A stretch of DNA of 60,979 nt from an uncultured Anaerolineaceae bacterium (GCA_964435005.1 CAYSXA010000002.1:1-60979), one strand, 5' to 3'; positions 14,757 to 33,647 are shown, numbered from the stretch's first letter. The notes: generated from the sequence alone by a model not told the origin. Numbers and translations are program-made.

Positions 14757-14798
14757 GGCCCCTGAGTCAGGCAGAGACCGAATACGCACGAGGAAACC

Positions 14799-16283: not shown

Positions 16284-16286
16284 GGT

Positions 16287-17267
16287 ATGGCAAAGCCGCT
16301 GGTAAGCATTGTCACGCCCTCATACAACCAGGCGACCTACCTGGAGCACACCATCCGCTCAGTGTTGGGGCAGGATTACCCCCACGTCGAGTACATCGTG
16401 GTGGACGGTGGCTCCACGGACGGCAGTGTGGAGATCATCCGCCGTTACGAAGACCGGCTGGCCTGGTGGGTCTCCGAGCCAGACGCCGGGCAGGCAGACG
16501 CGATCAACAAGGGGTTGGCGCGGGCACAGGGCGAGATCGTGGCCTGGCTGAACTCAGACGACCTGTATCGCCCCGACGCGGTGCGCGAGGCGGTGCAGGC
16601 CTTGCAGGCACACCCTGAAGCCGGGCTAGCCTTCGCCAACGCCACTTCGATTGACGCTCAGGGACGCCCGCTGAACGACATGACCTTTGGAGCGTGGGGG
16701 CTGGCCGACCTGCTGGCCTTTCGGATCATCTGTCAACCAGCAGTGTTCATGCGGCGCGCTGTCTTCGAGCAGGCCGGCGGGCTTTCCACGGAGTACCACT
16801 TTCTGCTGGATCACCACCTCTGGATACGCATGGCGCGGCTGGCTCCGATGATCTACGTGCCGTCCTTCTGGGCGTTCGCGCGCCACCACCCGGCGGCCAA
16901 GAACGTAGCGCAGGCGGTGCGCTTCGGCGAGGAAGCGTTCCGCATCCTGGCATGGGCCGAAACGCAACCCGACCTGCAACCGCTGCTGAGACAGCAGCGG
17001 CGGCGCGTCCAGGCTGGGGCGCACCGCTTTGCCGCCCGCTACCTGCTCGACGGCGGGCAGCCGCGCCAAGCGCTGGCGCATTATCTGCGCGCCCTGGGAT
17101 GGCACCCGCGCACCGCGCTCGCAGAAGGCCACCGCATGGTCTTTGCCGCGCTCAGCCTGCTGGGGTTGGGCTTCCTGGGCGACGCTTACTATCACTGGAA
17201 AGGACGACACCGGCCACAGTCCACGCAGCGAGAGGGGATAGAGAATGCCGACAGCCTCTACGCGTGA
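16287..17267 (+). CDS. family 2 glycosyltransferase, copy A
   Basis: Motifs [37 protein letters not shown] (DxD-type). Confidence 0.85.
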
Positions 17268-19017: not shown

Positions 19018-19787
19018 ACGATCCCCTGGTGACCATCGTCACCCCTTCATACAACCAGGCAGAGTTTCTGGAAGAAACCATCCAATCAGTGTTCGCACAG
19101 GATTACCCGCACATCGAGTACATTGTGATCGATGGCGGCTCCACCGATGGCAGCGTGGAGATCATCCGGCGCTACGAAGACCGGCTGGCCTGGTGGGTTT
19201 CCGAACCAGACCAAGGTCAGACGGACGCCATCAACAAGGGATTCGCCCGCGCGCAGGGCGAAATCCTGGCCTGGCTGAACTCGGACGACACCTACGAGCC
19301 GCACGCGGTTTCAGAAGCGGTGGCCTTTTTGCTGGCACACCCCGAAGTCGGGCTGGTGTACGGCGACGCCAATTACATCGACGAACAAGGACGTGTGCTG
19401 GGGCGTTTCCCCGCGGCGCAGACCGACTACCGTCGCCTGCGCCGTGGCTACGTCCACATCCCGCAACAGGCAGCCTTCTTCCGCGCCGACTTGTGGCGCC
19501 AAGTTGGGCCGCTCGACCCTTCATTTTACTTCGCGATGGACTACGATCTGTGGGTGCGGCTGGCGCGTGTCTCAGAGCTTCGCTACGTGCCGCGCCTGTG
19601 GGCGAACTTCCGCATCCACCGCAACGCCAAGACGCATAAGGACGACGACCGTTGCTGGCCGGAGATGCTGCGCGTGCACTACCGCGATGGTGGCAGCGTG
19701 TTCTCCGTCATCGTGCTCAAATACCTGATTCGCCGCGCCTTGGGGCCGCTCTGGGTGCGCTGGCGGGAGCGCAAAATCGGCGTGTGA
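19008..19787 (+). CDS. family 2 glycosyltransferase, copy B (paralog of 16287-17267)
   Basis: By hand alignment, 83 of the first 100 aligned residues are identical to copy A. This includes the 27-aa block [27 protein letters not shown]. The C-terminal halves diverge. Confidence 0.85.
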
Positions 19788-19809
19788 TTATCTTTCCAGG
19801 AGGATAGCA

Positions 19810-20694
19810 ATGAAAGGTATCATTCTGGCAGGCGGCAAAGGTACCCGCCTCTACCCGCTGACAATTTCTGTAAGCAAGCAACTGCTGCCGGTGTACGATA
19901 AGCCCATGGTGTACTACCCGCTCTCCATGTTGATGCTGGCCGGCATTCGGGAGATTCTGGTCATCAGCACCCCGGAGGCACTGCCTGCCTTTCGCAAGCT
20001 TCTGGGAAGCGGGGAACAGTGGGGATTGCGCTTCACCTATGCAGAGCAGGCAGAGCCGCGTGGACTGGCAGATGCTTTCCTGGTCGGCAGTGAGTTTGTG
20101 GGAAACGATCCTGTTTGCCTGATCCTGGGCGACAACATCTTCTTCGGCCACGGCCTGCCAGACAAACTGCGCGCCGCAGCGAAATTGACGCACGGTGCGC
20201 GTGTCTTCGCCTACCCGGTCAAAGACCCTGAACGTTACGGCGTGGTGGAGTTCGACGAGCAGGGACGGGCGCTGAGCATCGAAGAAAAGCCCAAACAGCC
20301 CAAATCCCGTTACGCTGTGCCAGGAATCTATTTCTACGATGGGCGCGTGGTAGAATTTGCCCGGGGATTGCGCCCCTCGGCACGCGGCGAATTAGAGATC
20401 ACTGATCTGAACAACGTTTATTTGCAACGCGGCGAACTGACCGTAGAAGTGCTGGGGCGTGGTGTGGCCTGGCTGGATGCAGGCACCCACGAATCGCTGC
20501 TCCAGGCAGCCAGTTTCGTCCAGGCGGTGGAGGAACGACAGGGGATGATGATCTCCTGCCCGGAAGAGATCGCTTTTCGTCTGGGCTACATCACGGCAGA
20601 AGAACTGAAAGCACTGGCGATGAAGATGAAGAACAACCACTACGGGCAGTATCTGTTGCAGATAGCAGAAGATTCCATAACTGTTGAGGCATAA
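19810..20694 (+). CDS. rfbA: glucose-1-phosphate thymidylyltransferase
   Basis: 294 aa. [18 protein letters not shown] and LGDNIF, with full-length RmlA-like layout. Confidence 0.92.
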
Positions 20695-20699
20695 ACGCA

Positions 20700-21578
20700 A
20701 TGCGCGTGCTGTTGTTGGGAAAGATCGGTCAGGTCGGATGGGAATTGCAGCGCACGCTGGCGCCGCTGGGTGAAGTGATCGCGCTCGATTATCCAGAAGT
20801 GGACTTTTTGCAACCCGAAACGCTGCGATCGGTTGTACGGCGTACTCGACCGGAAGTGATCGTCAACGCGGCAGCCTACACCGCCGTCGATCGTGCCGAA
20901 GAAGAGCCGGAGAAGGCGCACGCAATCAACGCTGAAGCGCCGCGCGTGTTGGCCGAAGAAGCCCATGCGCTGGACGCGGCGTTGATACACTATTCCACCG
21001 ATTTTGTGTTCGACGGCACAAAGGGCGCGCCCTACACTGAAGCCGACACACCCAACCCGATCAACGAATATGGGCGAAGCAAACTGGCTGGTGAGCAGGC
21101 CATTCAGCAAGTAGGCAGTGCGTATCTCATCTTCCGCACCAGTTGGGTGTACAGCCTGCGGCGGCCCTGCTTCGTGACCAAAGTGCTGGGCTGGGCACGG
21201 CAGCACGACACCCTGCGCATCGTGGACGACCAGATCGGCAGCCCAACCTGGTGCCGCATGCTGGCCGAGGTCACCGCGCAGGTACTGGCGCAGGGAGCGC
21301 TCAATGTACGCGATTTCGTGTCCGAGCGACAGGGCGTGTACCATCTAGCCGGCACGGGTGCGGTCTCCCGCTTCGAGTGGGCACAGGCCATCCTGGCGCT
21401 GACAAAGGACGATCAGCGCCGCGTACGACAGGTGCTGCCTGCCCGTAGCACGGACTTCCCCACCCCAGCGAGCCGTCCGGCGTTCAGCGCTCTGGACGTG
21501 AGCGCCTTCCACCACACGTTTGGCATCGGCCTGCCAGACTGGCGAGACGCATTGCAACTGGCGGTGAACCATGGGTGA
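20700..21578 (+). CDS. rfbD: dTDP-4-dehydrorhamnose reductase
   Basis: 292 aa. MRVLLLGKIGQVGWEL and NAAAYTAVDRAE, with STDFVFDG typical of RmlD. Confidence 0.88.
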   Translation: MRVLLLGKIGQVGWELQRTLAPLGEVIALDYPEVDFLQPETLRSVVRRTRPEVIVNAAAYTAVDRAEEEPEKAHAINAEAPRVLAEEAHALDAALIHYSTDFVFDGTKGAPYTEADTPNPINEYGRSKLAGEQAIQQVGSAYLIFRTSWVYSLRRPCFVTKVLGWARQHDTLRIVDDQIGSPTWCRMLAEVTAQVLAQGALNVRDFVSERQGVYHLAGTGAVSRFEWAQAILALTKDDQRRVRQVLPARSTDFPTPASRPAFSALDVSAFHHTFGIGLPDWRDALQLAVNHG

Positions 21579-22419
21579 GCGCCTTTGGGCGGAATCCGCC
21601 GCCGCGCCACTGGAATACGATTCGGCTTCCCTGACGATTGCGCCCGTTCAGGAAATCCGCGAACTGTGGCGCTACCGTGATCTGTTGCGCCTGCTGGTGG
21701 CGAACAGCATCAAGACGCGCTACAAACGCTCTATGCTGGGCGTGGTATGGACGTTGCTCAACCCGCTGCTGAACACTCTGGTGCTCACCATCGCACTTTC
21801 GGCGCTGTTCCGCTTCAACGTTAAAAATTATCCCATCTATATCCTGATTGGCTTGCTGGCGTGGAACTTCTTTTCCCAAACCGTCACCATGTCCATGCAC
21901 ACACTGGTGTGGGGCAGCAGCCTGCTGAAGCGCATCTACGTGCCGCGCTCCATCTTCGCCCTTTCCGTGCTGGGCAACGGACTGGTCAACCTGGGGCTGG
22001 CCTTCATCCCTCTGCTGCTGATCATGGCCGGGATGCGCCACCCCATCCGCTGGACGCTGCTCTTTGTGCCCGTGTCGGTTTCCCTGATGGCGCTGTTCAC
22101 GTTGGGGTTGTCGTTGCTGCTGTCCACACTGGCAGTCTTCTTCGCCGATGTGGTGGACATGGTCAGCATCCTGCTTTCCGCCTGGTTCTACCTGACGCCA
22201 ATCATCTACCCGCTGGACATCATCCCTGAGACATTTCGCCCATACATTCGCTGGAATCCGCTCACCGTGTTCGTTGAATTGTTCCACGCCCCTGTTTATG
22301 AGGGTCGCCTGCCCGATCCCCTGACGCTGGGCGTGGCGGTGGCGCTGGCATTTGGCACGGTGCTGCTTGGCTGGTGGGTGTTCACAAGGAAATCGGATGA
22401 GTTTGCGTACCGCATTTGA
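21571..22419 (+). CDS. wzm: ABC-2 type polysaccharide export permease
   Basis: 282 aa, 6 TM. N-terminal RELWRYRDLLRLLVANSIKTRYKRSMLGVVW is typical of Wzm/TagG. Confidence 0.8.
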   Translation: MGERLWAESAAAPLEYDSASLTIAPVQEIRELWRYRDLLRLLVANSIKTRYKRSMLGVVWTLLNPLLNTLVLTIALSALFRFNVKNYPIYILIGLLAWNFFSQTVTMSMHTLVWGSSLLKRIYVPRSIFALSVLGNGLVNLGLAFIPLLLIMAGMRHPIRWTLLFVPVSVSLMALFTLGLSLLLSTLAVFFADVVDMVSILLSAWFYLTPIIYPLDIIPETFRPYIRWNPLTVFVELFHAPVYEGRLPDPLTLGVAVALAFGTVLLGWWVFTRKSDEFAYRI

Positions 22420-23704
22420 GCATTCTGCGTCTGAAGATCTGGATGAACCGGTGATCCGGCTGGAAGGTGTGTCGGTGCGCTATCGCGTGCCGCACGAGCG
22501 CATCCCGTCTTTCAAAGAATATGCGATCCGCCGTTTGAAAGGCCAGGTGCAGTACCATCACTTCTGGGCGCTGAAGGACGTCAGCCTGGAGGTCTATCCA
22601 GGTGAAGTGGTGGGGATCATCGGGCCAAACGGCGCAGGCAAGAGCACACTACTCAAGGTAGTGGCGCGGGTGCTACGCCCCACGCGCGGACGGGTACAGG
22701 TGCGCGGACGGGTCTCGCCGCTGCTGGAACTGGGCGCAGGCTTTGACCCCGAACTGACCGGGCGCGAGAACGTGTATCTGAACGGGATGATCCTGGGACG
22801 CTCGCGTCGCCAGATCGACGAACGGTTCAACCACATCGTGGCCTTCGCCGGGCTGGAGGATTTCATTGACGCGCCGCTGCGCACCTACTCCACCGGCATG
22901 GTCGCCCGGCTGGGCTTCGCGGTCGCCACAGACGTGCGCCCGGAAATCCTGATCGTGGACGAGATCCTGGGCGTGGGCGACGCGGACTTCCAGACGCGCT
23001 CCTTCGAGCGCATCCAATCCTTCCAGGCAGCAGGCACCACGATCTTGCTGGTCTCTCATAGCCTGGAGCGGGTGCAGGAGATGTGCTCGCGCGTGGTGTG
23101 GCTGGACAAGGGGCAGGTAAAGGCCATTGGCACACCGGAGCAGGTGATTCACCATTATCTGGAACAGGTGAGTGAGCAAGAGGCTAAACGCCTGTCCGCC
23201 TCCATGGAAGAAACTTCTTCTACAACGTCAGAAGAAACCCCTCACCGATGGGGTACCGGCGTGGTGGAAATCACTCGCGTGCAGATCACCGACGCCAATG
23301 GCTCACCTAAGACAATCTTCCAGACCGGCGAACCGCTGTGCCTGCACATGGATTTCATCGCACACCACCCCGTGGAGTCGCCGGTGTTCGGCGTGGCGAT
23401 CCACCGCAACGATGGCGTGCACATCACCGGGCCGAACACCGCCTTCGCCGGCCTGACACTGCCGACCATCTCCGGCCCCGGAGAGGTCATCTACAAAATC
23501 CCTGCACTTCCGTTGCTGGAGGGCAAATATTTCTTCTCGGTGGCCGTGGTCAGCCAGGATGACACGGAATTGTACGACTACCACGATCGGTTGTACCCTT
23601 TTCGCGTGCAGAATCACAGTACAGAGATTCCGGAAAAATATGGGTTGATGACAATGCAAGGGCACTGGCAAGTGATCACTGAGACAGCAACGATCGAGGA
23701 GTAG
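22397..23704 (+). CDS. wzt: polysaccharide export ABC ATPase with C-terminal glycan-binding extension (Wzt-like)
   Basis: Walker A GPNGAGKST, signature YSTGM, Walker B ILIVDE. A C-terminal beta-rich extension of about 170 aa (VEITRVQITDANG...FGVAIHRNDGVHI) resembles the Wzt C-terminal carbohydrate-binding domain. Start trimmed to the ATG at 22397. Confidence 0.85.
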   Translation: MSLRTAFEHSASEDLDEPVIRLEGVSVRYRVPHERIPSFKEYAIRRLKGQVQYHHFWALKDVSLEVYPGEVVGIIGPNGAGKSTLLKVVARVLRPTRGRVQVRGRVSPLLELGAGFDPELTGRENVYLNGMILGRSRRQIDERFNHIVAFAGLEDFIDAPLRTYSTGMVARLGFAVATDVRPEILIVDEILGVGDADFQTRSFERIQSFQAAGTTILLVSHSLERVQEMCSRVVWLDKGQVKAIGTPEQVIHHYLEQVSEQEAKRLSASMEETSSTTSEETPHRWGTGVVEITRVQITDANGSPKTIFQTGEPLCLHMDFIAHHPVESPVFGVAIHRNDGVHITGPNTAFAGLTLPTISGPGEVIYKIPALPLLEGKYFFSVAVVSQDDTELYDYHDRLYPFRVQNHSTEIPEKYGLMTMQGHWQVITETATIEE

Positions 23705-23707
23705 TTC

Positions 23708-26700
23708 ATGGCCAACAGGCACCTTTTTGACGAATACTATTTCGCCCACAATTGCGGGCGACCATACCAACGAGACGAGCACTGGCTCAATTTTTTTGAT
23801 GGGATTGCAAAACGTATTATTGAAGAGTTTCAGCCACAAAGCGTTTTAGACGCTGGATGCGCCTGGGGATTCCTGGTCGAGGCTTTCCGCAAACGCGGTG
23901 TAGAGGCCTACGGCGTAGATATCTCAGAATATGCCCTCCAAAACGTGCATCCCGATATCAAACCTTACTGCTGGGTCGGATCAATCACTCAGCCTTTTGG
24001 CCGCAAATTCGATCTGATCACCTGTATCGAGGTATTGGAGCATCTGCTCCCGGACGAAGTCCCGAAGGCTATTGAAAACCTGTGTCAGCACGCCAATCAA
24101 ATCATCTTTTCCTCAACCCCCTTTGATTTCAAGGAAGCAACGCACTTTAGCGTCCACGATCCGGAATACTGGGCTGCACAGTTTGCCCGTCATGGCTTCT
24201 ATCGAGACTTAGACACAGATCTCTCTTACATCACCCCCTGGGCAGTTCGCTTTGTGAATACGCAAATGAGCCCAATGAGGCTTGTGCAGGCTTATGAGCG
24301 CAGGCTCTGGCTCCTGACGAAAGAAAACGTTGATTTACGGCAGGCTTCAGTTGAGGGCGAAGCGCAGGTGAGAGATCTGAGAAAACAGGTACAGCAACGA
24401 GGCCAGGAGATATCTGTGCTCTCCGCCCACATCAAAGAAAAAGAGCGGGAAATCGGTACGCTTGCAGAGCAGGTAAAAGAGAAAGACGGGGCAATACTCG
24501 CACTCTCTAACCAGATACATGAAATTATGGAGAGCGAGGCTTGGCTGCTCAGCAGGCTGCTGACTCGCATATTATCCCCGTTTGCCCCGCCAGGCAGCAA
24601 ACGAAACCGTATTGCAAAACGACTTGCAAAGGTAGCATGGACATGGCGCTCTAGAGGCAGAAAAGAGGCTCTCAAACTCCTTTCGCACTCGTGGCAGCAG
24701 GCGTTCTCACGCATCACAGACCGAGATGACTACCAGCGCTGGCAATTAGCGAACGAACCCAAACCCTCGGCACTGGCGCGCCAGCACAAGGAATGGAAAA
24801 ACTTCTCTTACCAACCCCTGATCAGCATCATCACACCGGTTTACAACCCTCCCCCTGCCGCACTTCGCGACACTATTGAATCCGTGTTGGCACAGACGTA
24901 CCCGCATTGGGAACTCTGGCTCATCGACGGCAAATCTACCTTATCGGAAGTGCGAGAGTTGTTAGAGGAAGTCGAGAAAAAAGATCAGAGAATCCACGTC
25001 GTGTTTCTGGAAGAGAATCTGGGGATATCCGGAAACACAAACGAAGGTTTGAAAAGAGCACAGGGGGATTTCGTTGCGTTCCTCGACCACGATGACCTGT
25101 TAGCGCCCAACATGCTTTACGAGGTCGTCGATGCTCTCAACCAGGATCCCCATACAGACATTGTTTACTTTGACGAAGATAAAATTTCTGCAGACGGACA
25201 GGTACGTAAAGACCCCTGGTTCAAGCCCCGGGCCTGGTCTCCCGACTTGCTGCTATCCGTGAACTATTTAATGCACTCGGTATTCCGCCGCTCTTTGTTG
25301 CAGGAAGTTGGTGGCTTCGACCCTCAGATGGACGGTGCTCAAGATTGGGACTTGGCACTCCGCTGCACAGAAAAGACACAGAAGATCCGCCACATCCCCA
25401 AAGTCCTTTACCATTGGCGACAGGTTCCCGGCTCAGCCGCCGCAGCAGCCGATGCCAAACCCTGGGCTTTCCGCGCACAGATAAATTGCGTCCAATCCCA
25501 TTTACAGCGCCTGGGTGTTCAGGATGCACAGGTTGTCTCCCCCAGCTTAGGACAAATTCGCGTATTATGGCCTGCCACGCACGCGAAAGTGTCGATTATC
25601 ATCCCTACAAAAGACAAAGTGGGGCTTTTACACGCCTGCCTCTCCTCGCTTTTGACGATAACTTCTTATCCAGACTACGAAATCATCCTTGTGGATACAG
25701 GGAGCGTTGAAAACGACACATGGCAATACTATGACTCCCTGGACGACCCCCGCGTAAAAATCGTCAAATTCAAAGAAGAGTTCAACTACTCCAAAGCGAA
25801 CAATTTCGGTGTACAACACGCTTCGGGAGAAATTCTTCTCTTCCTCAACAACGATACGCAAATTCTCGCCGCCGACTGGTTAACGGAACTGGCCGGCTGG
25901 GCAAGCCGCCCCGAAGTCGGCGCCGTGGGATGTAAATTGCTGCGCCCTGACGGTACAATCCAACACGCGGGGATCATAATCGGCCTGGAAGGCCATGGAA
26001 GCCATGTTTTTGAAGGTAACCCGGAATCCTATTACGGGCCTTTCGGGTCATCAGAGTGGTATCGAGATTACCAGGCAGTCACTGGTGCCTGCATGTGCAT
26101 GCGACGGGAAGTTTTCGAGCAAGTCAACGGCTTTGACCCTGCATATCAGATCGGCTATGGCGACATTGATCTGTGCCTACGGGTCAGGGAAAAGGGCTAT
26201 CGTGTCGTATATACACCTTTTGCCCGCCTGTTGCACCACGAAGGTGGCACTCGCGGTCTCTCGCTGCCAGCCAGTGACGTTCTTCGCGCATCAATCAAGA
26301 TGTATGACTTGATTTGCGCCGGTGACGCTTACTTCAACCCGAACCTCTCCTACATGAAGCGCAAGACGGCTATCGCCTTACCCGACGAGGAAACTCGAGA
26401 GGAACGATTGTTTCGTATCTTAACGCAATATGGCTTGGTTAACCCGAATACCCCCCACACAAGCCTTGAGCCAGGCGACATCCCGGATCGTGATTCCTTC
26501 GCTGCCGCTTCGCCGAATCTGCTATTCATCACTCACGACCTCAGCAGAAGCGGGGCCCCGATCCTGTTGCACGCTCTGGGGCGAAAGCTATCCGAAAGCT
26601 ATCAAATAACCGTGCTCTCTCCCGTCGATGGCCCCTTGAAAGAAGAGTTTCTTCGCAATGGCATCAACGTTGTGGTACATCCCGCCGCGTTGGACGACGC

Positions 26701-27586
26701 CCGTGTCATCGCCCAAGTCGCAAAGGAATACGACTGCGTAGTAGCAAACACCATTCTGGCCTGGCGTGCTATATACGCTGCCCTGGCCATGGAACGTCCT
26801 TGTATATGGTGGATTCACGAATCCCGTTTCGGCGCGAAACTGGCAACCGAAAACAGACAGGTTGGCAATGCTTTCAAAGCTGCCAGCAAAGTGATCTTCC
26901 CCGCAAACAAGGTCGCCGACTTGTACCGACCATTCCTCCCCACAAACGAGAAATTTGTCTGCCTTCCCTTCTTTGACCTGGAGTATTTGCAAGACAGACA
27001 GCAGTTCCCTCAAATTCTCGACAAACAACCTGATCGCAAGTACGTGGTATGTATTGGGAGTATAGAGCCGCGCAAAGGGCAAGACATCTTGCTGGAAAGC
27101 CTCAGCTTGCTGCCAGAACATACGCGCTCTAAACTGGAGGTCTATTTCATAGGCCGCACTCTGGCAAAATCTTATTATCATCGACTTGTCCGTCAATCTA
27201 GAAAGTGGAAGAACGTCCATTTCATTGGAGAAGTACCTCATGAGACCGCGCTCGCGTACCTTGCACAAGCAGACATCTTCGTCCTTCCTTCCCGAGATGA
27301 AGTCTTGCCGGTAACGTTGCTTGAGGCCATGTTCTTCGGAAAAACGATCATAGCTAGCAACGTCGGGGGCATTGGGGAGGTGATTACCCATGGAAACAAC
27401 GGATTGCTGGTCGAACCTGGCAATCCGCAATCCCTGGCGGACCAACTCACTTTCTTATGCAGCGAGGAGGCCAAAAGACATGCGTTGGGTAAGCGGGCAC
27501 AAACTACCATCCACCACCTTACTGAAGAAACAGACCATGAGTTCATCAAGATACTTGAAACGGTTTGCTCCCATAACCCTGCGTAG
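23708..27586 (+). CDS. 1292-aa multidomain enzyme: SAM methyltransferase / coiled coil / GT2 / GT2 / GT4(GT-B)
   Basis: - aa 40-130: VLDAGCAWGFL...FDLITCIEVLEHL (class I methyltransferase).
- aa ~192-280: heptad-rich segment (RDLRKQVQQRGQEISVLSAHIKEKEREIGTLAEQVKEKDGAILALSNQIHEIMESE).
- aa 371-600: ISIITPVYN...FLDHDD (GT2).
- aa 625-870: VSIIIPTKD...LFLNNDT (GT2).
- aa 935-1292: EPRKGQD...PSRDEVLPVTLLEAMFFGKTIIASNVGG (GT4 EX7E). Confidence 0.85.
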   Translation: MANRHLFDEYYFAHNCGRPYQRDEHWLNFFDGIAKRIIEEFQPQSVLDAGCAWGFLVEAFRKRGVEAYGVDISEYALQNVHPDIKPYCWVGSITQPFGRKFDLITCIEVLEHLLPDEVPKAIENLCQHANQIIFSSTPFDFKEATHFSVHDPEYWAAQFARHGFYRDLDTDLSYITPWAVRFVNTQMSPMRLVQAYERRLWLLTKENVDLRQASVEGEAQVRDLRKQVQQRGQEISVLSAHIKEKEREIGTLAEQVKEKDGAILALSNQIHEIMESEAWLLSRLLTRILSPFAPPGSKRNRIAKRLAKVAWTWRSRGRKEALKLLSHSWQQAFSRITDRDDYQRWQLANEPKPSALARQHKEWKNFSYQPLISIITPVYNPPPAALRDTIESVLAQTYPHWELWLIDGKSTLSEVRELLEEVEKKDQRIHVVFLEENLGISGNTNEGLKRAQGDFVAFLDHDDLLAPNMLYEVVDALNQDPHTDIVYFDEDKISADGQVRKDPWFKPRAWSPDLLLSVNYLMHSVFRRSLLQEVGGFDPQMDGAQDWDLALRCTEKTQKIRHIPKVLYHWRQVPGSAAAAADAKPWAFRAQINCVQSHLQRLGVQDAQVVSPSLGQIRVLWPATHAKVSIIIPTKDKVGLLHACLSSLLTITSYPDYEIILVDTGSVENDTWQYYDSLDDPRVKIVKFKEEFNYSKANNFGVQHASGEILLFLNNDTQILAADWLTELAGWASRPEVGAVGCKLLRPDGTIQHAGIIIGLEGHGSHVFEGNPESYYGPFGSSEWYRDYQAVTGACMCMRREVFEQVNGFDPAYQIGYGDIDLCLRVREKGYRVVYTPFARLLHHEGGTRGLSLPASDVLRASIKMYDLICAGDAYFNPNLSYMKRKTAIALPDEETREERLFRILTQYGLVNPNTPHTSLEPGDIPDRDSFAAASPNLLFITHDLSRSGAPILLHALGRKLSESYQITVLSPVDGPLKEEFLRNGINVVVHPAALDDARVIAQVAKEYDCVVANTILAWRAIYAALAMERPCIWWIHESRFGAKLATENRQVGNAFKAASKVIFPANKVADLYRPFLPTNEKFVCLPFFDLEYLQDRQQFPQILDKQPDRKYVVCIGSIEPRKGQDILLESLSLLPEHTRSKLEVYFIGRTLAKSYYHRLVRQSRKWKNVHFIGEVPHETALAYLAQADIFVLPSRDEVLPVTLLEAMFFGKTIIASNVGGIGEVITHGNNGLLVEPGNPQSLADQLTFLCSEEAKRHALGKRAQTTIHHLTEETDHEFIKILETVCSHNPA

Positions 27587-29495
27587 AACGGGGCAGGCGC
27601 TGGCGTTCACTCTGGTGGCACTCGTGATCCTTTGGGGTGCCACGCGTTCCCTGGCTGTTGCCCTCCCCGCATCCATCACCGTGCCATCAACCGCCCAACC
27701 AGAAGGTCTTGACTTTGCTTCACTCTATTTACGAGACCCCTGGGACATGTCTGAGTTTTCAGATGTCTCCCAATATTTGAATGAGTCTGGCCAACGAAAT
27801 CTGGTGACCAACATCAATGTCTCCAACGGTGTTTTCAGTGGAACGTCTGTCGGGGATGCCCTCAGCGGTAACGCCTATTTCTTCCCCCTCTTCCCCGGCT
27901 ACCTGGGTGCGATCCAGGTTGGGAAGGTTGGAAGCCGGTATCCCATTCCAAAGGACACGTTCAAATGTCTCTACATCGCCATGAAAGTGGATTCAGGGCC
28001 AGCCAACAAATTCGGGCCCGACCAATACAGGGTGTTCTGGTTTGCCGATGAGCACCTTACCAACGGTTCCTGGGGACAATCCTATGGCCAGCCACTCTAT
28101 CCGGAAGCCGGTGCTGGGCAACCTGTGCACAGCTGGCGCTTGTATTCCATAGACTTATCCACAGCCCCCTTATTTGATGGCAACACCACGTGGAATAACA
28201 TGCCCAGTGTAGAGGGGATCCGTATCGATCCCACCATTAATGCAAATGTCAACTTCGCAGTGGACTGGGTGCGTCTAACTGACTGCAATCCAGTGGATGT
28301 TACAATCACCTGGACTGGAGGAACCTCCGCCGACACGGCCATCTGGCTGCGGCCAGTGAACACCAACCGCGACATCCGAGTAGCAACGGGGGTTGACGGC
28401 ACAGCGGGCTGGTACACGCTGGACGTACAGGGCATTGCCCCCGGCTCCTATTACGTGGGTCTGGGAACGGATACCACCTGCTGTTCCCAGATGAATACGG
28501 CTCAACCCCTGGTGATTCAACAGACTCCCATTGTCTCTTTCACGCGCCCTTCTTTCCTGAGCGGAACAGACTATGCAAGCTCAGCAGGCAATCAATGGGA
28601 TTTTGGGGACAGCAGCGATGTGGTTGACACCCGAAACTTTAAGAGTGTGTCCTTGCAAAACGGGGAATTAGTCATGGTCACGGCTTCAGGCCCCCAACCT
28701 GCTGGAGTAGATGCCCAGGTAGTCCTTAACACCCCTGCGCCTATTGACACTTCGACTTACCGCTATCTCTCGTTCCGCATGTCCACCCAGAACGGTTCAG
28801 CTCCCTGGCAAAATGTAGTGGACGGGATGATCGCCCGTCTGGTGTGGTCGATCCAGGGTTCCAGTGGCAGGCCCGGTTATCGGTGTAACCTGGTCAGCCA
28901 AGACATTCCCTATGACGTGGGCTACCACACCTACACAATCGACTTGCATGACGCGTTCAGCGGATCAGCAGAGGAAGTCCAGGGCGAATGCACCGGATAC
29001 CCATGGAGATGGCAACAAACCCTGCCGGTGTTAGAGCTCAGATTTGATCCGAACGAAAACATCACCTGCAACCCTCAATCAGGGAGTTCCTTTATTATTT
29101 CGACCTGCGGAGACTTCGTGCAGAACCTGGACTGGATTCGTCTAACAGCCATAGATCAGGTGAAACGGGGAACACCCTATCTTATTGAAACAATCGTGAC
29201 CCCCCTGGAAAGCGGAATGGCCATTGATTTCTTCTATACAACCGACAGGAACAATCCCACCCAATTTCTGGCGGAACAATACTACGCTGCCCCACCTATC
29301 GGTAGTTTCCAGGTGTTTTTACCCGTGGTGGTGAACAGCCTCTCCAACTCTGACACAACCCCTGAAAGCAATTATACTTACCTGTGGGATACCTCAAATG
29401 TACCTCCCGGCACCTACTACATCTGTGCAAGGTACACCGGATTCCAAACTGTCACTTATTGCAGCGAAGCTCCTGTAAAGGTAACTTCCCCTTGA
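27537..29495 (+). CDS. exported/N-terminally anchored protein of unknown function with two internally repeated beta-rich modules
   Basis: 652 aa from the ATG at 27537 (the ORF track starts at 27390 inside the previous gene). One N-terminal TM (ALAFTLVALVILWG). Repeated landmarks: VDWVRLTDCNP / LDWIRLTAIDQ, IRIDPT / LRFDPN, YSIDL / YTIDL, APGSYYV / PPGTYYI. Confidence 0.6.
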   Translation: MSSSRYLKRFAPITLRRTGQALAFTLVALVILWGATRSLAVALPASITVPSTAQPEGLDFASLYLRDPWDMSEFSDVSQYLNESGQRNLVTNINVSNGVFSGTSVGDALSGNAYFFPLFPGYLGAIQVGKVGSRYPIPKDTFKCLYIAMKVDSGPANKFGPDQYRVFWFADEHLTNGSWGQSYGQPLYPEAGAGQPVHSWRLYSIDLSTAPLFDGNTTWNNMPSVEGIRIDPTINANVNFAVDWVRLTDCNPVDVTITWTGGTSADTAIWLRPVNTNRDIRVATGVDGTAGWYTLDVQGIAPGSYYVGLGTDTTCCSQMNTAQPLVIQQTPIVSFTRPSFLSGTDYASSAGNQWDFGDSSDVVDTRNFKSVSLQNGELVMVTASGPQPAGVDAQVVLNTPAPIDTSTYRYLSFRMSTQNGSAPWQNVVDGMIARLVWSIQGSSGRPGYRCNLVSQDIPYDVGYHTYTIDLHDAFSGSAEEVQGECTGYPWRWQQTLPVLELRFDPNENITCNPQSGSSFIISTCGDFVQNLDWIRLTAIDQVKRGTPYLIETIVTPLESGMAIDFFYTTDRNNPTQFLAEQYYAAPPIGSFQVFLPVVVNSLSNSDTTPESNYTYLWDTSNVPPGTYYICARYTGFQTVTYCSEAPVKVTSP

Positions 29496-29511
29496 AAGGA
29501 ACGCTCTATCC

Positions 29512-30501
29512 GTGACTACCCTGGTGTCTGTTCTTTTGGTGACCTTTAACAGCGCGGCATATTTGTCGCGCTGTCTGACACATCTGAGCCAACAGACCTT
29601 CCGGGATTTTGAATTAATCATCGTAGATAACGGATCTACGGATAAGTCTTTAGAAACGCTAAACACACTGGACACTGCACGGGCGTTTCCTGCTCTACGA
29701 CTCATACGCTTAGATCACAATGCTGGATTCGCTGTTGCAAACAACGTAGCCGCACGTCTTGCCCACAGTCCCTGGCTGGCGTTGCTCAACCCTGATGCCT
29801 TTCCTGCTCCAACCTGGCTGGAACATCTAGTTGAGGCTGCGAAGCAGCATCCGGAGTACCATTTCTTTGCTTCACGCCTGATCCAGGCCCAACAACCAAA
29901 CCTGCTAGACGGCGCCGGCGATGTGTATCACGTAAGCGGCTTAGCCTGGCGACGCTTCCACAACATGCCTGCCGATCAATTCGGCTTGGAGAAAGAGGAA
30001 GTTTTTGGCCCCTGCGGGGCAGCAGCCATGTACAGCCGCCAAGCGTTCCTGGAAGCAGGTGCCTTCGACGAAGACTTCTTCAGCTACCACGAAGACGTAG
30101 ACTTGGCCTTTCGCCTTCGGTTAAGAGGCCACCGATGCCTTTACGTACCAGCCGCCGTCGTCCATCACATAGGTTCCGCCAGTACGGGCGTTAAAAGCAA
30201 TTTTGCTGTGTATCACGGGCACCGCAACCTGGTCTGGACTTTCATCAAAAACATGCCTGCCCCCCTGCTGATCAAATACTGGCCATTGCACCTGCTGTTT
30301 ACGGTAATACAGTGGGGTTACTACATTGGCAGAGGGCAAGGCCGCGCCTTTGCACGTGCCAAAAAAGACGCTTTTCGCCGCCTCCCCCTGATGTGGCAAA
30401 AGCGCAAAGACATCCAGACCGAATCCCGCGTGACAGCGCAGGAGATAACCCAACACCTCTCACGAAACCTGTTGGCCCCTTTGAAATCGCGAAAAGTGTA
30501 A
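29512..30501 (+). CDS. family 2 glycosyltransferase (rhamnosyltransferase-like)
   Basis: GTG start. Motifs VSVLLVTFNSAAYL, IIVDNGSTD, LLNPDAF. Confidence 0.85.
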   Translation: MTTLVSVLLVTFNSAAYLSRCLTHLSQQTFRDFELIIVDNGSTDKSLETLNTLDTARAFPALRLIRLDHNAGFAVANNVAARLAHSPWLALLNPDAFPAPTWLEHLVEAAKQHPEYHFFASRLIQAQQPNLLDGAGDVYHVSGLAWRRFHNMPADQFGLEKEEVFGPCGAAAMYSRQAFLEAGAFDEDFFSYHEDVDLAFRLRLRGHRCLYVPAAVVHHIGSASTGVKSNFAVYHGHRNLVWTFIKNMPAPLLIKYWPLHLLFTVIQWGYYIGRGQGRAFARAKKDAFRRLPLMWQKRKDIQTESRVTAQEITQHLSRNLLAPLKSRKV

Positions 30502-30505
30502 TTCG

Positions 30506-31393
30506 ATGCAACTGTCCATTTGCATTGTCTCTTTCAACACCAAAAGCTACCTGCATGATTGCTTATACTCCATTGTGGAAAACATCCACATCCCTCATGA
30601 AGTCATCGTGGTGGACAATGGTTCCACAGATGGCACGGCAGAGATGCTGACGGCAGAGTTCCCTCAGGTGCGTTTCTTTCCTGGCTCGACCAACGAGGGC
30701 TTCAGCCGCCCGATGAACCGGGCTCTGCGTGCTGCGCAGGGAGAATATCTGGTATTGCTCAACCCGGACACCGTGGTGCTGGAAAAGGCTTTCGACCAAC
30801 TCGTGGCATTCATGGAAGCCCATCCGGAGGTCGGCATCTGTGGCCCAAAGGTGCTCAACCCGGACGGCACACTGCAAGGCCCTTGCCGGCGTGGCGAGTC
30901 GCGCCCCTGGGCGGTGATCAGTTACTTCCTGGGGCTGTACCGTCTGTTCCCCCGCTCGAAACGCTTTGGTGGTTATTTGCTGAATTACCTGGATGAGGAT
31001 GAAATCGCAGAAGTGGGCGGCGTCTCAGGTTCCTGTATGATGATCCGCCGCGCAGTCATCGAGGACATCGGCTACTTGGACGAACGTTTCTTCGCCTATC
31101 AGGAAGACGCCGATTATTGCTTTCGTGCGCGGCAGGCAGGTTGGAAGGTCTATTACGTCCCCACGGCGCGGATCATCCACTACGGCGGGCAGGGCGGCTC
31201 ACACGCCGCTCCCTGGCGAGCCATCATAGAGTGGCACCGCTCGTACTGGCTGTACTATCGAAAAAACCTAGCACGTGACTACTTCTTCCTGTTCAACTGG
31301 GTATATTACAGTCTGATGCTGTTGAAACTGTGCTTTACCCTGGCGACGAACCTCTTCCGCCACAAAAAGAATCCCGGCCACGGCAAAAGGTGA
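30506..31393 (+). CDS. family 2 glycosyltransferase (rhamnosyltransferase-like)
   Basis: Motifs LSICIVSFNTKSYL, VIVVDNGSTDGT, LLNPDTV. Confidence 0.85.
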   Translation: MQLSICIVSFNTKSYLHDCLYSIVENIHIPHEVIVVDNGSTDGTAEMLTAEFPQVRFFPGSTNEGFSRPMNRALRAAQGEYLVLLNPDTVVLEKAFDQLVAFMEAHPEVGICGPKVLNPDGTLQGPCRRGESRPWAVISYFLGLYRLFPRSKRFGGYLLNYLDEDEIAEVGGVSGSCMMIRRAVIEDIGYLDERFFAYQEDADYCFRARQAGWKVYYVPTARIIHYGGQGGSHAAPWRAIIEWHRSYWLYYRKNLARDYFFLFNWVYYSLMLLKLCFTLATNLFRHKKNPGHGKR

Positions 31394-31405
31394 GATAATT
31401 GGCTC

Positions 31406-32179
31406 ATGTCTTCTCCAAAACCTGCTGAAAACTGGTGGATGGGCTGGCAGGTACTGACTATCTGCACCCTGTTCGGCGCGGTCGTCGGTTTCCTGGTCCA
31501 TCGCCAGCGCCCGCCAGTGTACGAAGCCCAGGTCACCTTCAACATCTTCCTGGACATGGCACGCACCGGCTCTCTGGACGAGCGCGAGACGGATCATGTA
31601 CTGGGTACAGCTGGCTGGTTGCTGACCGCTGGATCGGTGATTCCCCAGGCCGCACAACGAGCCCAGGCACAAGGCTGGCCGATCGACACAGCAACGCTGG
31701 CCAGTCACGTGTTCGTCGAACGCCTGCAAAATCGCTGGGCAGTGCGAGTCCGCGACACGAACCCACAACGCGCAGCTCAACTGGCGAACTGGATCGGCGA
31801 ACTTGGCCTGCAACAATTGCAAGATGCCTACAGCCACGCATTGAAAGCACACATGCTGCGCCGCCACATGGACCACCTGGAACGCTGCCTGGAGGCAGCG
31901 CCCTCGCTAAGCCCCGCAGCACCACCCCCGTGCAATTTGAAATCCCTGCCCCAGCTACAAGCGGACATGGAAGCCACCGCGGCCCAGTTGACCGCCGAAG
32001 CTTTGGCCTCGCATGGGCTGGTGCCCGCGCTAACTTTCGGCGTGCTCGCCTGGGCCACACCGCCAACGCAGCCTGTGCTCTACGGGCGGACGACCTCCAT
32101 TCTGGTCGGTACAGCGATTGGCATCTGGGTGGGGCTATCCTGGCTGGTCATCATTGCACGGAGAGAGATCCATGCTTGA
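31406..32179 (+). CDS. polysaccharide co-polymerase-like (Wzz-type topology) protein
   Basis: 257 aa. N-terminal TM followed by PPVYEAQVTF (Wzz-like PxYxA), a helical central part, a Pro-rich segment (ATPPTQPVLYG), then a C-terminal TM. Confidence 0.5.
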   Translation: MSSPKPAENWWMGWQVLTICTLFGAVVGFLVHRQRPPVYEAQVTFNIFLDMARTGSLDERETDHVLGTAGWLLTAGSVIPQAAQRAQAQGWPIDTATLASHVFVERLQNRWAVRVRDTNPQRAAQLANWIGELGLQQLQDAYSHALKAHMLRRHMDHLERCLEAAPSLSPAAPPPCNLKSLPQLQADMEATAAQLTAEALASHGLVPALTFGVLAWATPPTQPVLYGRTTSILVGTAIGIWVGLSWLVIIARREIHA

Positions 32180-33647
32180 ACGCTGGGAACGGCTGGGGGA
32201 GCGCATAGCGCCTGTTCTGTGGGCAGCATTGCTCATCTCCCTGCCTGTGACCAGTTTCCGACCACTTTCGCGACTGCTGGGCGGGCCAATGGTTGCCCCG
32301 CTGGCCATGGTGCCGATGGGCATGCTGCTCGTGGTCTGGGTCGCACCACATCTGCTACGACAACGGTGCCTGCCGCGCCTGACCTGGCCTTTCTTCGCCT
32401 TTGTCTGGGTGGCGTTGCTCGCTTCGCTGGCGGCCTTCTTCCTGCCCATCCCTCCCTATCGATCCCACACGATACTGACAAGCGAATTCAGCGCCTGGGC
32501 CACACTGGGCATCGGTGGTGGCTTTTACCTGACCACCATTACCTGGCTTCGAGACGAAAAACACCTGCGCAACGCGCTCTACTGGCTTAACCTGTCGGCA
32601 ATCGTACTGTTCACCTGGTCGGCGATACAAGGCTACTATGTGTTCGTGCGCAGCGCAAATCCGTCCTGGCTGATCACGGCACAGCGATGGATCAGTCTGC
32701 GTGGGCTGTTTCCGCACCGTCTGAACGGCCTGGCGTTTGAACCGTCGTGGCTGGCGCATGTGCTGAACATGGCTTACTTTCCCTGGTGGATCGCCGCCGT
32801 GACTCGACGACAGTCGGTGTATCGCTGGCGGCTGGGCCCGATCCTGGCGGAAGACCTGCTACTGGCCGTTGGGTTGCTCGTCCTGTTGTACTCGTTCTCG
32901 CGCATTGGCTTGATTTCCGTCCTTTTGATGACGGGCTACCTCAGCCTGCGATTGAACCTCTGGCTGGGGGAGCGTATCCACGTCTGGCTGCGTCGGCGGT
33001 TGCCCGCAGGCCGGGTTGTATCCATCATGCTGGGGGGCGGACTCTTCTTTGCCTTTCTGCTCTTTTACGCAGCGGTTTTGTACACCCTGATCCGTTTTGG
33101 TGCGCGCTACGATGTCCGTATCGCGGCCATGTTTGAGATCACTGCCGCCGATTTCACCAGCCCCTGGAATCTGGTGAATCGCCTGTTCTTCGCCGAACGA
33201 ATGGTTTACTGGGTGGCTGCCCTGCGCGTGTTCGGTCGTTTCCCCTGGCTGGGCGTAGGGTTGGGGAACGTGGGCTACTTTCTCCCTCAAACCCTGCCCG
33301 ATTTTGGCTGGTGGCTGCCGGAAGTCAACGATGTGTTGCTACGCTTCGCCTTTTTGCCCAACGCCAAGAACCTGTGGGTGCGTCTGCTGGCTGAAACCGG
33401 CGTTATGGGATGGACGGCTGTTCTGGTCTGGGTGTGGGGATTGTGGCGTGCGGCGCGGTCTCTGGAGCGAAAAACACCCGTGTCGCCGTTGATCAACCTG
33501 CTTGGGCTGGGCGGCCAGTTGATGTTGATCGCCTGGTTCTCCGAGGGGTTCAGCCTGGATACGTTTGGCCTGCCGTATTACTGGCTGGGGCTGGGAATAC
33601 TCACCGCCGCCGTGGCGGTGGGGGCACAGGAGGAATCGTTTTCATGA
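32172..33647 (+). CDS. O-antigen ligase / Wzy_C family polytopic membrane protein
   Basis: 491 aa, about 11-12 TM. HRLNGLAFEPSWLAHVL and FSRIGLISVLLM resemble the Wzy_C signature. Start ATG at 32172 overlaps the previous stop (ATGCTTGA). Confidence 0.7.
   Translation: MLERWERLGERIAPVLWAALLISLPVTSFRPLSRLLGGPMVAPLAMVPMGMLLVVWVAPHLLRQRCLPRLTWPFFAFVWVALLASLAAFFLPIPPYRSHTILTSEFSAWATLGIGGGFYLTTITWLRDEKHLRNALYWLNLSAIVLFTWSAIQGYYVFVRSANPSWLITAQRWISLRGLFPHRLNGLAFEPSWLAHVLNMAYFPWWIAAVTRRQSVYRWRLGPILAEDLLLAVGLLVLLYSFSRIGLISVLLMTGYLSLRLNLWLGERIHVWLRRRLPAGRVVSIMLGGGLFFAFLLFYAAVLYTLIRFGARYDVRIAAMFEITAADFTSPWNLVNRLFFAERMVYWVAALRVFGRFPWLGVGLGNVGYFLPQTLPDFGWWLPEVNDVLLRFAFLPNAKNLWVRLLAETGVMGWTAVLVWVWGLWRAARSLERKTPVSPLINLLGLGGQLMLIAWFSEGFSLDTFGLPYYWLGLGILTAAVAVGAQEESFS

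Follow-up and report, generated by a model that had tools for sequence, protein, structure and literature searches.

The window analysed here, a stretch of 60,979 nucleotides, carries at positions 23708-27586 (+) a single uninterrupted reading frame encoding a protein of 1292 aa. A GAGGAG ribosome-binding site precedes the frame, whose start lies 4 nt past the stop codon of wzt. Directly upstream lie rmlA (19810-20694, +; NTP_transferase, E 8e-73), rmlD (20700-21578, +; RmlD_sub_bind, E 3e-99), the ABC-2 permease gene wzm (21571-22419, +; ABC2_membrane, E 2.1e-16), whose end overlaps the start of wzt, and wzt itself (22397-23704, +), encoding a 435-aa ABC-transporter ATPase with ABC_tran and Wzt_C domains. 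Junctions throughout this series overlap or abut. rmlA and rmlD represent two of the four dTDP-L-rhamnose synthesis genes; rmlB and rmlC were not found in the cluster. The C-terminal carbohydrate-binding domain of Wzt (about 23243-23626, +) matches Wzt_C with an E value of 2.6e-31 (Pfam), and an alignment with Aquifex aeolicus Wzt (7k2t/8dku; E 2e-68) extends over its nucleotide-binding as well as its carbohydrate-binding domain, bearing out an earlier note on this DNA that had credited the adjacent Wzt with a C-terminal extension. The order rmlA-rmlD-wzm-wzt-methyltransferase/GT is repeated in three further loci (L011, L012 and L014), and the same rmlA-rmlD-wzm-wzt order was seen in Chloroflexota and in one Oscillospiraceae genome.

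Downstream, two stand-alone GT2 genes (29512-30501 and 30506-31393, both +; PF00535, E about 4e-27 each) are candidates for adaptor synthesis or for extra linkages. Of these, the latter shares 60% identity with its syntenic counterpart in loci L084 and L085. A polytopic, multi-pass hydrophobic protein (32118-33647, +) resembles Wzy_C at an E value of 1.1e-5, under the Pfam cut-off, and has a syntenic Wzy_C counterpart in L084; it could be the ligase or O-oligosaccharyltransferase that acts on the exported glycan. Beyond the 1292-aa protein, the operon has four GT2 genes and a pair of GT-C genes (Pfam). No initiating phosphoglycosyl transferase was found among cluster ORFs of at least 200 aa scanned against Pfam.

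The reading frame, Pfam matches and an AlphaFold2 (AF2) model (monomer, 55-sequence alignment, mean pLDDT 90.5) agree on a methyltransferase, a coiled coil, a hinge and three glycosyltransferase modules, assigned by Pfam to GT2, GT2 and GT4, thereby confirming the earlier proposal that these modules form one 1292-aa chain. In other genomes the methyltransferase-coil part and the GT2-GT2-GT4 part are each separate genes, as would be expected if mis-assembly, or read-through joining separate methyltransferase and GT genes, had produced the long frame here. We consider such an artefact highly improbable. The identical 1292-aa protein is encoded by two contigs assembled independently of each other (Logan SRR5189948 and JGI 3300009408), the same fused order recurs in 43 relatives from many samples, and a conserved hinge runs continuously into the leader of the first GT2 module. 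The methyltransferase-coil-GT2-GT2-GT4 layout is real.

The N-terminal domain (aa 1-188; 23708-24271, +) is a class I SAM-dependent methyltransferase, which we propose to be a chain-terminating O-methyltransferase. Methyltransf_23 covers aa 39-162 (E 1.5e-13), Methyltransf_11, Methyltransf_12 and Methyltransf_25 also match (Pfam), and the AF2 model displays alternating strands and helices of a Rossmann-like fold. Motif I (VLDAGCAWG), the acidic residue D71 and an IEVLEH motif align with solved methyltransferases, and D48, G50, C51, A52, G54, E58, D71, E108, E111 and H112 are invariant across 55 relatives. The SAM-binding residues are thus both present and conserved. Sequence matches to WbdD (E 0.013-0.019) and to CgnL (7pd7; E 0.033) are marginal. 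Pfam and NCBIfam scans of the protein found no kinase family; moreover, the methyltransferase reaches to about aa 188 and a helix begins at aa 189, so that no unassigned folded domain, and no room for a kinase, is left between them. A cap made here would be plain methyl rather than methyl-phosphate. The methyltransferase occupies the terminator position, predicted to be distal to the membrane, and would end the chain from there.

Residues 189-274 (24272-24529, +) form one continuous helix in the model, with pLDDT of about 88-92. At about 0.148 nm per residue, its 86 residues correspond to a length of about 12.8 nm, in close agreement with the earlier estimate of a heptad-rich segment of ~85 aa and ~13 nm. 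A single unbroken heptad register spans the entire helix, with position a occupied by V L N S V V I I I V I I and position d by P Y L L G L R L K L K L I. Hydrophobic residues fill 18 of the 25 core positions, versus 12.6 +/- 1.2 in shuffled sequences (p = 0.0002). Together, model and register identify a confident long helix with heptads, not a disordered segment. Because the model is monomeric, the oligomeric state and parallel packing of the coil are assumptions.

Comparison with relatives shows that no other portion of the protein is as poorly conserved or as variable in length as the coil. The initial ~25 residues of the stalk (YERRLWLLTKENVDLR) are conserved and the remainder is variable. 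The coil has a median identity to relatives of 34%, whereas the flanking methyltransferase and GT2 domains reach about 60%. The spacer between methyltransferase and GT2 ranges from 107 to 309 aa among relatives, its length correlates with the longest proline-free run (r = 0.72), and tandem duplications of a heptad, 14 residues and 21 residues are visible. In a pooled set of 116 SKAW-tailed relatives (84 stand-alone and 32 fused), 81 base-to-tail distances fell into one mod-7 class, with values of 52, 59, 66, 73, 80, 87 and 101 residues (p about 7e-41); the protein under study has 80. This quantisation was not evident in the 32 fused SKAW-tailed proteins taken alone, nor in relatives with the other distal motif, QKNEHI...GRVMR. 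Coil length therefore appears to shift by whole heptads in the stand-alone relatives, and across relatives the coil seems to behave like a spacer, variable in length between conserved ends.

The coil leads into a hinge (aa 277-337; 24536-24718, +) comprising, in order, an amphipathic helix (EAWLLSRLLTRIL), a Pro-rich turn and a basic, Trp-containing helix (KRNRIAKRLAKVAWTWRSRGRK) with a net charge of +6/+7. The model places helices at residues 277-289, 298-316 and 318-337 with lower pLDDT, and the hydrophobic moment is about 0.5. The counterpart of the hinge is the conserved C-terminal tail SKAWKLVTVIRKIRVWLIPKDSHRERLAKK that closes stand-alone methyltransferase-coil proteins. By analogy with WbdD (PMC5082667), the hinge is a candidate membrane-docking element.

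The first GT2 module (aa 341-600; 24728-25507, +; PF00535 at aa 373-533) opens with a conserved DxYQxW...EP leader, adopts a GT-A fold with a DHDD motif, and resembles GT-A enzymes including K4CP and the TDP-rhamnose-binding RmlT (AF2 and Foldseek). The second (aa 616-870; 25553-26317, +) is another PF00535 stretch, matching Glyco_trans_2_3 at aa 710-842 and Glyco_transf_7C at aa 783-838. Both have counterparts in proteins encoded by Enterococcus, Paenibacillus and Lysobacter rhamnan loci: the first module shares 45-52% identity with GT2 modules there, and the second shares 38-44% with the second GT2 in these proteins. The pair as a whole is 38-52% identical to proteins of the E. faecalis epa region, E. 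asini, Paenibacillus and Lysobacter. These homologues adjoin an ABC-transporter ATPase in all four cases, and rml genes in E. asini and Paenibacillus. The E. faecalis match (L062) probably lies in EF2181/EF2180, for which homology with the C-terminal domain of WsaE has been reported (PMC7188991). Rhizobium tumorigenes encodes a 958-aa methyltransferase-coil-GT2-GT2 protein beside an ABC transporter, a 'rhamnan synthesis F' gene and rfbABCD. Rhamnose is the likely substrate of the polymerising modules.

The C-terminal module (aa 935-1292; 26510-27586, +; PF16994 and PF00534) belongs to the retaining family GT4 and has a GT-B fold (pLDDT 94.5), with Glyco_trans_4_5 at aa 937-1041, Glycos_transf_1 at aa 1096-1265 and the E-x7-E motif EVLPVTLLE. 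Its best Foldseek matches were HepE, PglA and BshA, with TM scores of about 0.75. A WsaF-type beta-1,2-rhamnosyltransferase was considered and rejected, as the module matched neither WsaF_N nor WsaF_C (PF21374, PF22772; Pfam) and WsaF was not among its top 50 Foldseek matches. Those two families do turn up in a neighbouring gene of locus L085.

The probable explanation, in our judgement, is that the 1292-aa protein is a cytoplasmic assembly protein for an ABC-transporter-dependent, rhamnose-containing surface glycan with ruler-type methyl capping in a Chloroflexota-type bacterium. The GT2-GT2(-GT4) modules would extend a polyprenol-linked chain at the membrane using dTDP-L-rhamnose (the GT4 donor excepted), with the basic amphipathic hinge docking the protein there. 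The coiled coil, if parallel, would keep the SAM methyltransferase about 13 nm off, within reach of sufficiently long chains only. O-methylation at the non-reducing end would then halt elongation, and the methylated end would be recognised by the carbohydrate-binding domain of Wzt for export via Wzm/Wzt. As far as sequence analysis reaches, this logic of terminator, ruler, polymerase and cap-reading transporter is the best-supported reading.

This one protein may not make the whole polymer. The earlier claim that a single protein suffices is too strong in an operon holding the additional GT2 and GT-C genes described above, and it is a real possibility, if one falling somewhat short of an even chance, that the three GT modules are a partial polymerase whose repeat unit also needs the stand-alone GT2 enzymes. 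One module, most likely GT4, would then add an adaptor, a side branch or a non-rhamnose residue, consistent with the resemblance of GT4 to UDP-sugar enzymes (HepE, PglA and BshA) rather than to WsaF. A fused GT4 is missing from 41 of the top 119 database relatives, and the Klebsiella pneumoniae O7 polymer requires a separate ribofuranosyltransferase (PMC11231755). On the other hand, 43 of the 119 carry the exact five-module layout including GT4, and the 35 without a methyltransferase keep GT2-GT2-GT4 as a unit, which suggests joint action of all three. Adaptor synthesis of the WsaC/WsaD kind (PMC2943079) would be an equally good role for the stand-alone GT2 genes. Because one GT2 module of the O7 protein adds two residues, module count need not equal linkage count (PMC11231755).

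Ruler-type capping itself could be questioned if the methyltransferase acted on internal sugars or a non-glycan substrate, the helix merely oligomerised and chain length were set otherwise. WsaE methylation in vitro is independent of chain length (PMC2943079), in one syntenic Anaerolineales locus the methyltransferase is a separate protein of 251 aa with nearly no coil, and the Wzt of the Rhizobium relative has no carbohydrate-binding domain. Methyltransferase, coil and cap-reading Wzt are therefore not obligatorily coupled, and similarity to WbdD is marginal. We nonetheless judge this reading unlikely. The Wzt_C domain present here is a hallmark of capped-glycan systems (PMC11231755), the succession of terminator, coil and basic amphipathic tail matches the layout of WbdD (PMC5082667), and a three-fold length range with conserved ends is unexpected for a pure oligomerisation domain.

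The earlier note knew of no description of an architecture of this kind with a methyltransferase cap. WsaE (2008) and Klebsiella O7 ORF6 (2024) precede it, and the abundance of the layout in public data undercuts the claim further: the layout is already known (WsaE, Klebsiella O7 ORF6, WbbB) and is common in Chloroflexota, and the methyltransferase-coil module is additionally found on its own in hundreds of proteins of ~300 aa. The fused GT4 and absent kinase are the only differences from known systems. New in this analysis are the variability of the coil, its apparent whole-heptad length changes in stand-alone relatives, and the GT2-GT2 match to rhamnan loci, which links the protein to loci from Enterococcus to Rhizobium.

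Several characterised terminators share part of this design. WbdD (E. coli O9a/O8; K. pneumoniae O3/O5) likewise has an N-terminal methyltransferase, a coil and then a C-terminal amphipathic region, an arrangement that the stand-alone ~300-aa relatives reproduce exactly. Its coil is a parallel ruler, for which ruler experiments have been reported, and its C-terminal region binds the membrane; counterparts of both are predicted here. The WbdD coil is trimeric and about 20 nm long (PMC5082667), compared with about 13 nm here. Unlike our protein with its fused GTs, WbdD recruits a separate polymerase, WbdA. The O9a form contains a kinase, absent here, whereas the O8/O5 form makes a methyl-only cap like that predicted here. 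WbbB (Klebsiella O12/Raoultella terrigena) similarly joins an N-terminal distal terminator, a coiled coil and polymerising GTs in one chain, but its terminator is a beta-Kdo glycosyltransferase (GT99) and its cap a sugar, in place of a methyltransferase. Overall, the locus combines a putative terminator domain, an extended coil, Wzm/Wzt with Wzt_C and C-terminal fused GTs, as in systems of the WbdD, WbbB and O7 ORF6 type, and lacks the kinase beside the methyltransferase that marks the methyl-phosphate terminators WbdD O9a and O7 ORF6.

K. pneumoniae O7 ORF6, biochemically characterised by Kelly et al. 2024, combines a methyltransferase-kinase, a coiled coil and two GT2 rhamnosyltransferase modules in one chain, and conforms to a general principle by which a coiled coil carries the terminator at its distal end (PMC11231755). 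Our protein has the same N-terminal methyltransferase, central coiled coil and two C-terminal GT2 modules in a single polypeptide, and its locus again has rml genes and encodes a pathway that depends on an ABC transporter. Orthologues of ORF6 occur with and without fused GT modules (PMC11231755), and the relatives described here are likewise split into fused and unfused forms. ORF6 differs in placing a kinase and an Ig-like binding module between methyltransferase and coil, in its methyl-phosphate cap and in lacking a GT4 module.

WsaE of Geobacillus stearothermophilus NRS 2004/3a, which acts on an S-layer glycan rhamnan, was characterised by Steiner et al. 2008 (summarised in PMC2943079). It comprises an N-terminal methyltransferase and two rhamnosyltransferase domains and makes a 2-O-methyl cap that the Geobacillus Wzt is proposed to read (PMC2943079). 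The protein described here has this WsaE-type layout in architecture and neighbourhood: a methyltransferase followed by two GT2 rhamnosyltransferase-type domains within a single soluble protein, a wzm-wzt pair immediately upstream whose junctions overlap, and a cluster that also includes rml genes and a Wzy_C-type transferase (WsaB in Geobacillus, a candidate here). Both hosts are without lipopolysaccharide, and the predicted cap is again methyl and not methyl-phosphate. A coiled coil is present here, and the sources consulted on WsaE mention none. Further differences are the Chloroflexota-like phylum and the fused GT4, as the Geobacillus GT4 enzyme WsaF is a separate protein of a different family. 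Judged by architecture and context, the protein belongs with WsaE and K. pneumoniae O7 ORF6.

The open reading frame at 23708-27586 (+) runs uninterrupted for 1292 aa, starting 4 nt past the stop of the upstream gene and preceded by a GAGGAG ribosome-binding site. Two contigs assembled independently of each other (Logan SRR5189948 and JGI 3300009408) encode the identical protein; thus, the fusion is not an assembly artefact. Pfam bore out the methyltransferase, GT2, GT2 and GT4 domains listed in the earlier note: Methyltransf_23 at aa 39-162, a first GT2 stretch at aa 373-533 (GT2a), a second matching Glyco_trans_2_3 at aa 710-842 (GT2b), and a GT4/GT-B unit composed of Glyco_trans_4_5 (aa 937-1041) and Glycos_transf_1 (aa 1096-1265). 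The best-supported mechanism, which we consider probable, is that this protein acts in the assembly of an exported, rhamnose-containing glycan as its terminator, spacer and polymerase, where we infer the cap, the ruler (a coil setting glycan chain length) and membrane docking.

The N-terminal domain is a SAM enzyme. Motif I (VLDAGCAWG), the acidic D71 at the end of strand 2 and the FDLITCIEVLEH motif line up with solved class I methyltransferases, and D48, G50, C51, A52, G54, E58, D71, E108, E111 and H112 are invariant in 55 relatives. The SAM methyltransferase proposed earlier therefore possesses its SAM-binding residues. A Foldseek search with a model of aa 1-620 returned top matches only to the GT2 domain, none informative on the methyltransferase, and was replaced by a sequence search with the methyltransferase domain alone. 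Similarity was marginal both to Escherichia coli WbdD (E 0.013-0.019) and to CgnL (E 0.033), the reported closest structural relative of the methyltransferase in Klebsiella pneumoniae O7 ORF6.

The AlphaFold2 model of aa 1-620, based on an alignment of 55 relatives (mean pLDDT 90.5), places one unbroken helix at aa 189-274 (pLDDT about 88-92). Its 86 residues, at about 0.148 nm each, give a length of about 12.8 nm, matching the earlier estimate of roughly 13 nm for this heptad segment. A single heptad register spans the entire helix, with V L N S V V I I I V I I at position a and P Y L L G L R L K L K L I at position d. Hydrophobic residues occupy 18 of 25 core positions versus 12.6 +/- 1.2 expected (5000 shuffles, p = 0.0002). 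Disorder and a chance pattern are thus both rejected for the segment, and the coiled coil originally read there stands. With leucine at d and beta-branched residues at a, the helix would fit a parallel dimer, although this is only suggestive.

Beyond the coil, AlphaFold2 predicted shorter and less confident helices at aa 277-289, 298-316 and 318-337, which form a hinge (aa 277-337) leading to GT2a. The first (EAWLLSRLLTRIL) is an amphipathic helix; after a Pro-rich turn, the second (aa 298-316, KRNRIAKRLAKVAWTWRSR) contains tryptophans and has a net charge of +6 to +7. The N-terminal 340 aa found their best database matches in stand-alone proteins of about 270-330 aa (50-62% identity) rather than in fusions. 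These stand-alone proteins consist of the methyltransferase, a conserved helix base (YERKFWQLRKENFDLR) and a variable coil, and terminate on a conserved tail (SKAWKLVTVIRKIRVWLIPKDSHRERLAKK). Their coils are often made up of a 14-residue unit, for example VAEKEQSVQALTAQ, in 2-5 copies (proteins P0121-P0240) and vary among themselves by whole heptads between the conserved ends. One stand-alone methyltransferase-coil relative carries a Nanoarchaeota MAG label. This head-coil-tail order is like that of WbdD, in which a catalytic head is followed by a coiled coil and a membrane-binding C-terminal region (PMC5082667). The hinge of the 1292-aa protein is the same element as the conserved tail and, by analogy with the WbdD layout, would dock on the membrane beside the GT modules.

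Across relatives, the coil seems to act as a spacer of adjustable length. In the 119 top relatives, identity to the 1292-aa protein had a median of 62% for the methyltransferase, 61% and 59% for the GT2 modules, 40% for GT4 and 34% for the coil, which in many of these proteins gave no BLAST match whatsoever. The spacer between methyltransferase and GT2 is 180 aa long here; in relatives it measured 107-309 aa, apart from an outlier of 709, and its length correlated with the longest proline-free run (r = 0.72). Several relatives display recent tandem duplications of 7, 14 or 21 residues; a 14-residue periodicity is evident in the coil at the protein level only, no tandem repeats being found in its DNA. 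Periodicity of 3.5 residues over entire spacers reached z > 3 in 19 of 85 by Fourier analysis, a measure too blunt because the spacer includes the hinge and register shifts, and explicit register counting and anchor-to-anchor distances were used instead. In a pooled set of 116 mostly stand-alone proteins (84 stand-alone, 32 fused), the distance from helix base to SKAW tail fell in one mod-7 class in 81 (p about 7e-41, the proteins being mutually related), with values of 52, 59, 66, 73, 80, 87 and 101 residues; the 1292-aa protein, at 80, lies within the series. The 32 fused proteins bearing the SKAW tail showed no evident quantization in whole heptads. Quantization was likewise absent (not significant) in fused proteins with another distal motif (QKNEHI...GRVMR), for which the small HMM also caught spurious sites within GT domains (distances > 300). 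Quantization is therefore claimed only for the pooled, mostly stand-alone set and not for fused proteins.

The GT2 modules link the protein to rhamnan loci. A DHDD motif is present in GT2a, as is a conserved DxYQxW...EP leader, and GT2a-GT2b are 38-52% identical to tandem GT2 modules in the Enterococcus faecalis epa region (L062), E. asini (L070), Paenibacillus (L080) and Lysobacter (L052). In all four loci the GT2 pair is flanked by an ABC-transporter ATPase, and in E. asini and Paenibacillus by rml genes as well. The E. faecalis match presumably falls in EF2181/EF2180, genes whose products resemble the C-terminal rhamnosyltransferase domain of Geobacillus WsaE (PMC7188991). In the cultured Rhizobium tumorigenes, plasmid pRt932 (L083, 8995-13537) encodes a 958-aa methyltransferase-coil-GT2-GT2 protein, annotated merely as 'glycosyltransferase', beside an ABC transporter, 'rhamnan synthesis F', a GT4 and rfbABCD. 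The neighboring ATPase, at only 251 aa, lacks a cap-binding domain; thus, terminator and Wzt binding module are not always paired. The GT4 module has a confident fold (pLDDT 94.5) and is a retaining GT-B enzyme with an E-x7-E motif whose closest structures by Foldseek are HepE, PglA and BshA. A fusion of WsaE with WsaF was considered but is not supported for GT4: the 1292-aa protein had no Pfam match to WsaF_N or WsaF_C, and WsaF was not among the top 50 Foldseek matches of the module.

The gene lies in a stretch (~13950-33647) where every gene is on the + strand and tightly packed. An MptE-like (DUF115) protein (13950-14756) is encoded just upstream of two pairs of a polytopic, PMT_2-like GT-C and a small GT2 (14799-16283 with 16287-17267; 17245-19017 with 19008-19787). 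These pairs look like machinery adding side-chain sugars outside the membrane from polyprenol-phosphate donors. Then come rmlA (19810-20694), rmlD (20700-21578), wzm (21571-22419) and wzt (22397-23704). Together with the GT2 matches to rhamnan loci, the position of rmlA and rmlD directly upstream makes a rhamnose-based polymer the best inference for the product. The order rmlA-rmlD-wzm-wzt-methyltransferase/GT recurs in Chloroflexota and in one Oscillospiraceae genome. The C-terminal extension ascribed earlier to Wzt is present (Wzt_C, about aa 283-410, E 2.6e-31), and the match to Aquifex aeolicus Wzt spans both nucleotide-binding and carbohydrate-binding domains (E 2e-68). A Pfam scan of window ORFs of at least 200 aa judged likely genes found no initiating phosphoglycosyl transferase, rmlB or rmlC in the cluster; the sole candidate dehydratase/epimerase among the ORFs scanned is a 312-aa product encoded about 15 kb upstream (3608-4546, -). 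Chloroflexota is not known to make lipopolysaccharide, and a protein- or wall-linked glycan, as for WsaE, is therefore more likely than an O antigen.

Downstream, a gene probably at 27537-29495 (+) overlaps the end of the polymerase gene by 50 nt. Its 652-aa product is anchored in the membrane at the N terminus, has a large extracytoplasmic part and gave no Pfam, NCBIfam or PDB match. In L084, a syntenic Anaerolineales locus, a full-length homologue (45% identical) is found at the equivalent position (11095-12996), and the related loci L006, L012, L014 and L057 have weaker homologues (26-35%). The protein looks like a conserved, uncharacterized partner of this pathway. Two GT2 genes (29512-30501 and 30506-31393), a Wzy_C-like membrane protein (32118-33647) and two InhA-like metalloproteases, paralogues that carry MAM domains (33410-35647 and 35730-37805), follow, all on the + strand. 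Wzy_C is also followed by InhA_MAM in L084 (17417-19069), and the two proteases could have a part in the glycan system, perhaps as glycoproteins that accept the glycan or as enzymes of processing. G+C content over 24-30 kb (the polymerase and 652-aa protein genes) is 52-53% versus 62-68% in the flanks, which fits either horizontal acquisition or the low G+C typical of serotype-specific and surface-glycan genes. Unrelated to the glycan locus, 51449-56873 (+) holds genes for multihaem c-type cytochromes (MtrC/MtrF-like, NapC/NirT-like) and a cytochrome b561-like protein.

A full-length search retrieved 1112 proteins at E <= 1e-20. Layouts among the top 119 were methyltransferase-GT2-GT2-GT4 (43), methyltransferase-GT2-GT2 (41) and GT2-GT2-GT4 (35). 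Named relatives with all five modules came from Chloroflexales, Roseiflexaceae, Anaerolineales, Ca. Chloroploca and Ca. Viridilinea. HMMER, run exhaustively on the N-terminal 340 aa, gave at least 825 clusters (50% identity) at E <= 1e-30; the best 150 comprised 82 at <=500 aa and 50 at >=800 aa. The syntenic L084 is a split version, containing rmlCBAD, a separate 251-aa methyltransferase (61% identical) with almost no coil, and a 1022-aa GT2-GT2-GT4 protein about 60% identical over the two GT2 and 43% over GT4, along with a PF00953 initiating transferase, Wzy_C and an InhA-like protease.

In the most integrated form of the pathway, terminator, ruler, membrane dock and three linkage-forming transferases would reside in one chain producing a methyl-capped rhamnan with a trisaccharide repeat, a reading we regard as tentative and rather unlikely. 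If true, GT-family stereochemistry would assign alpha linkages to the GT2 modules and, provided dTDP-L-Rha is also its donor, a beta linkage to GT4, and such integration would occur in a phylum not known to make lipopolysaccharide. The family's coils, stepping in heptads from 52 to >100 residues between conserved ends, would then constitute a natural allelic series of about 1-nm glycan-length steps. Other GT genes in the operon, and the lack of an assigned GT4 donor sugar, leave the earlier proposal of a polymer made by a single protein unestablished.

The strategy of capping combined with a coiled-coil ruler and an ABC transporter that reads the cap is already established, and methyltransferase-GT fusions have been characterized, so conceptually little is new; rather, a large uncharacterized Chloroflexota family, with its methyltransferase module in at least 825 clusters, is placed within this strategy. 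The coil lengths that differ by whole heptads point to a natural series, usable for testing the ruler model outside Enterobacteria and for designing glycans of defined length. A bioinformatic census of such systems was reportedly published in 2019 by Mann, Kimber and Whitfield (Glycobiology 29:822). Fusion of the polymerase modules varies among the systems (PMC11231755). The earlier note had taken this architecture with a methyltransferase cap to be undescribed, but it has precedents. WsaE combines a methyltransferase with two rhamnosyltransferase domains and produces a 2-O-methyl cap, with Wzt proposed as reader (PMC2943079); O7 ORF6 has the order methyltransferase, kinase, binding module, coiled coil, GT2, GT2 (PMC11231755). 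Only three differences remain: the 1292-aa protein adds a fused GT4, comes from another phylum and, unlike O7 ORF6, has no kinase, and a plain methyl cap is therefore predicted. Fused, split and coil-less versions are all found in syntenic loci; thus, fusion, coil and transporter module are shuffled within one family, the same pattern that Kelly et al. describe in Klebsiella (PMC11231755).
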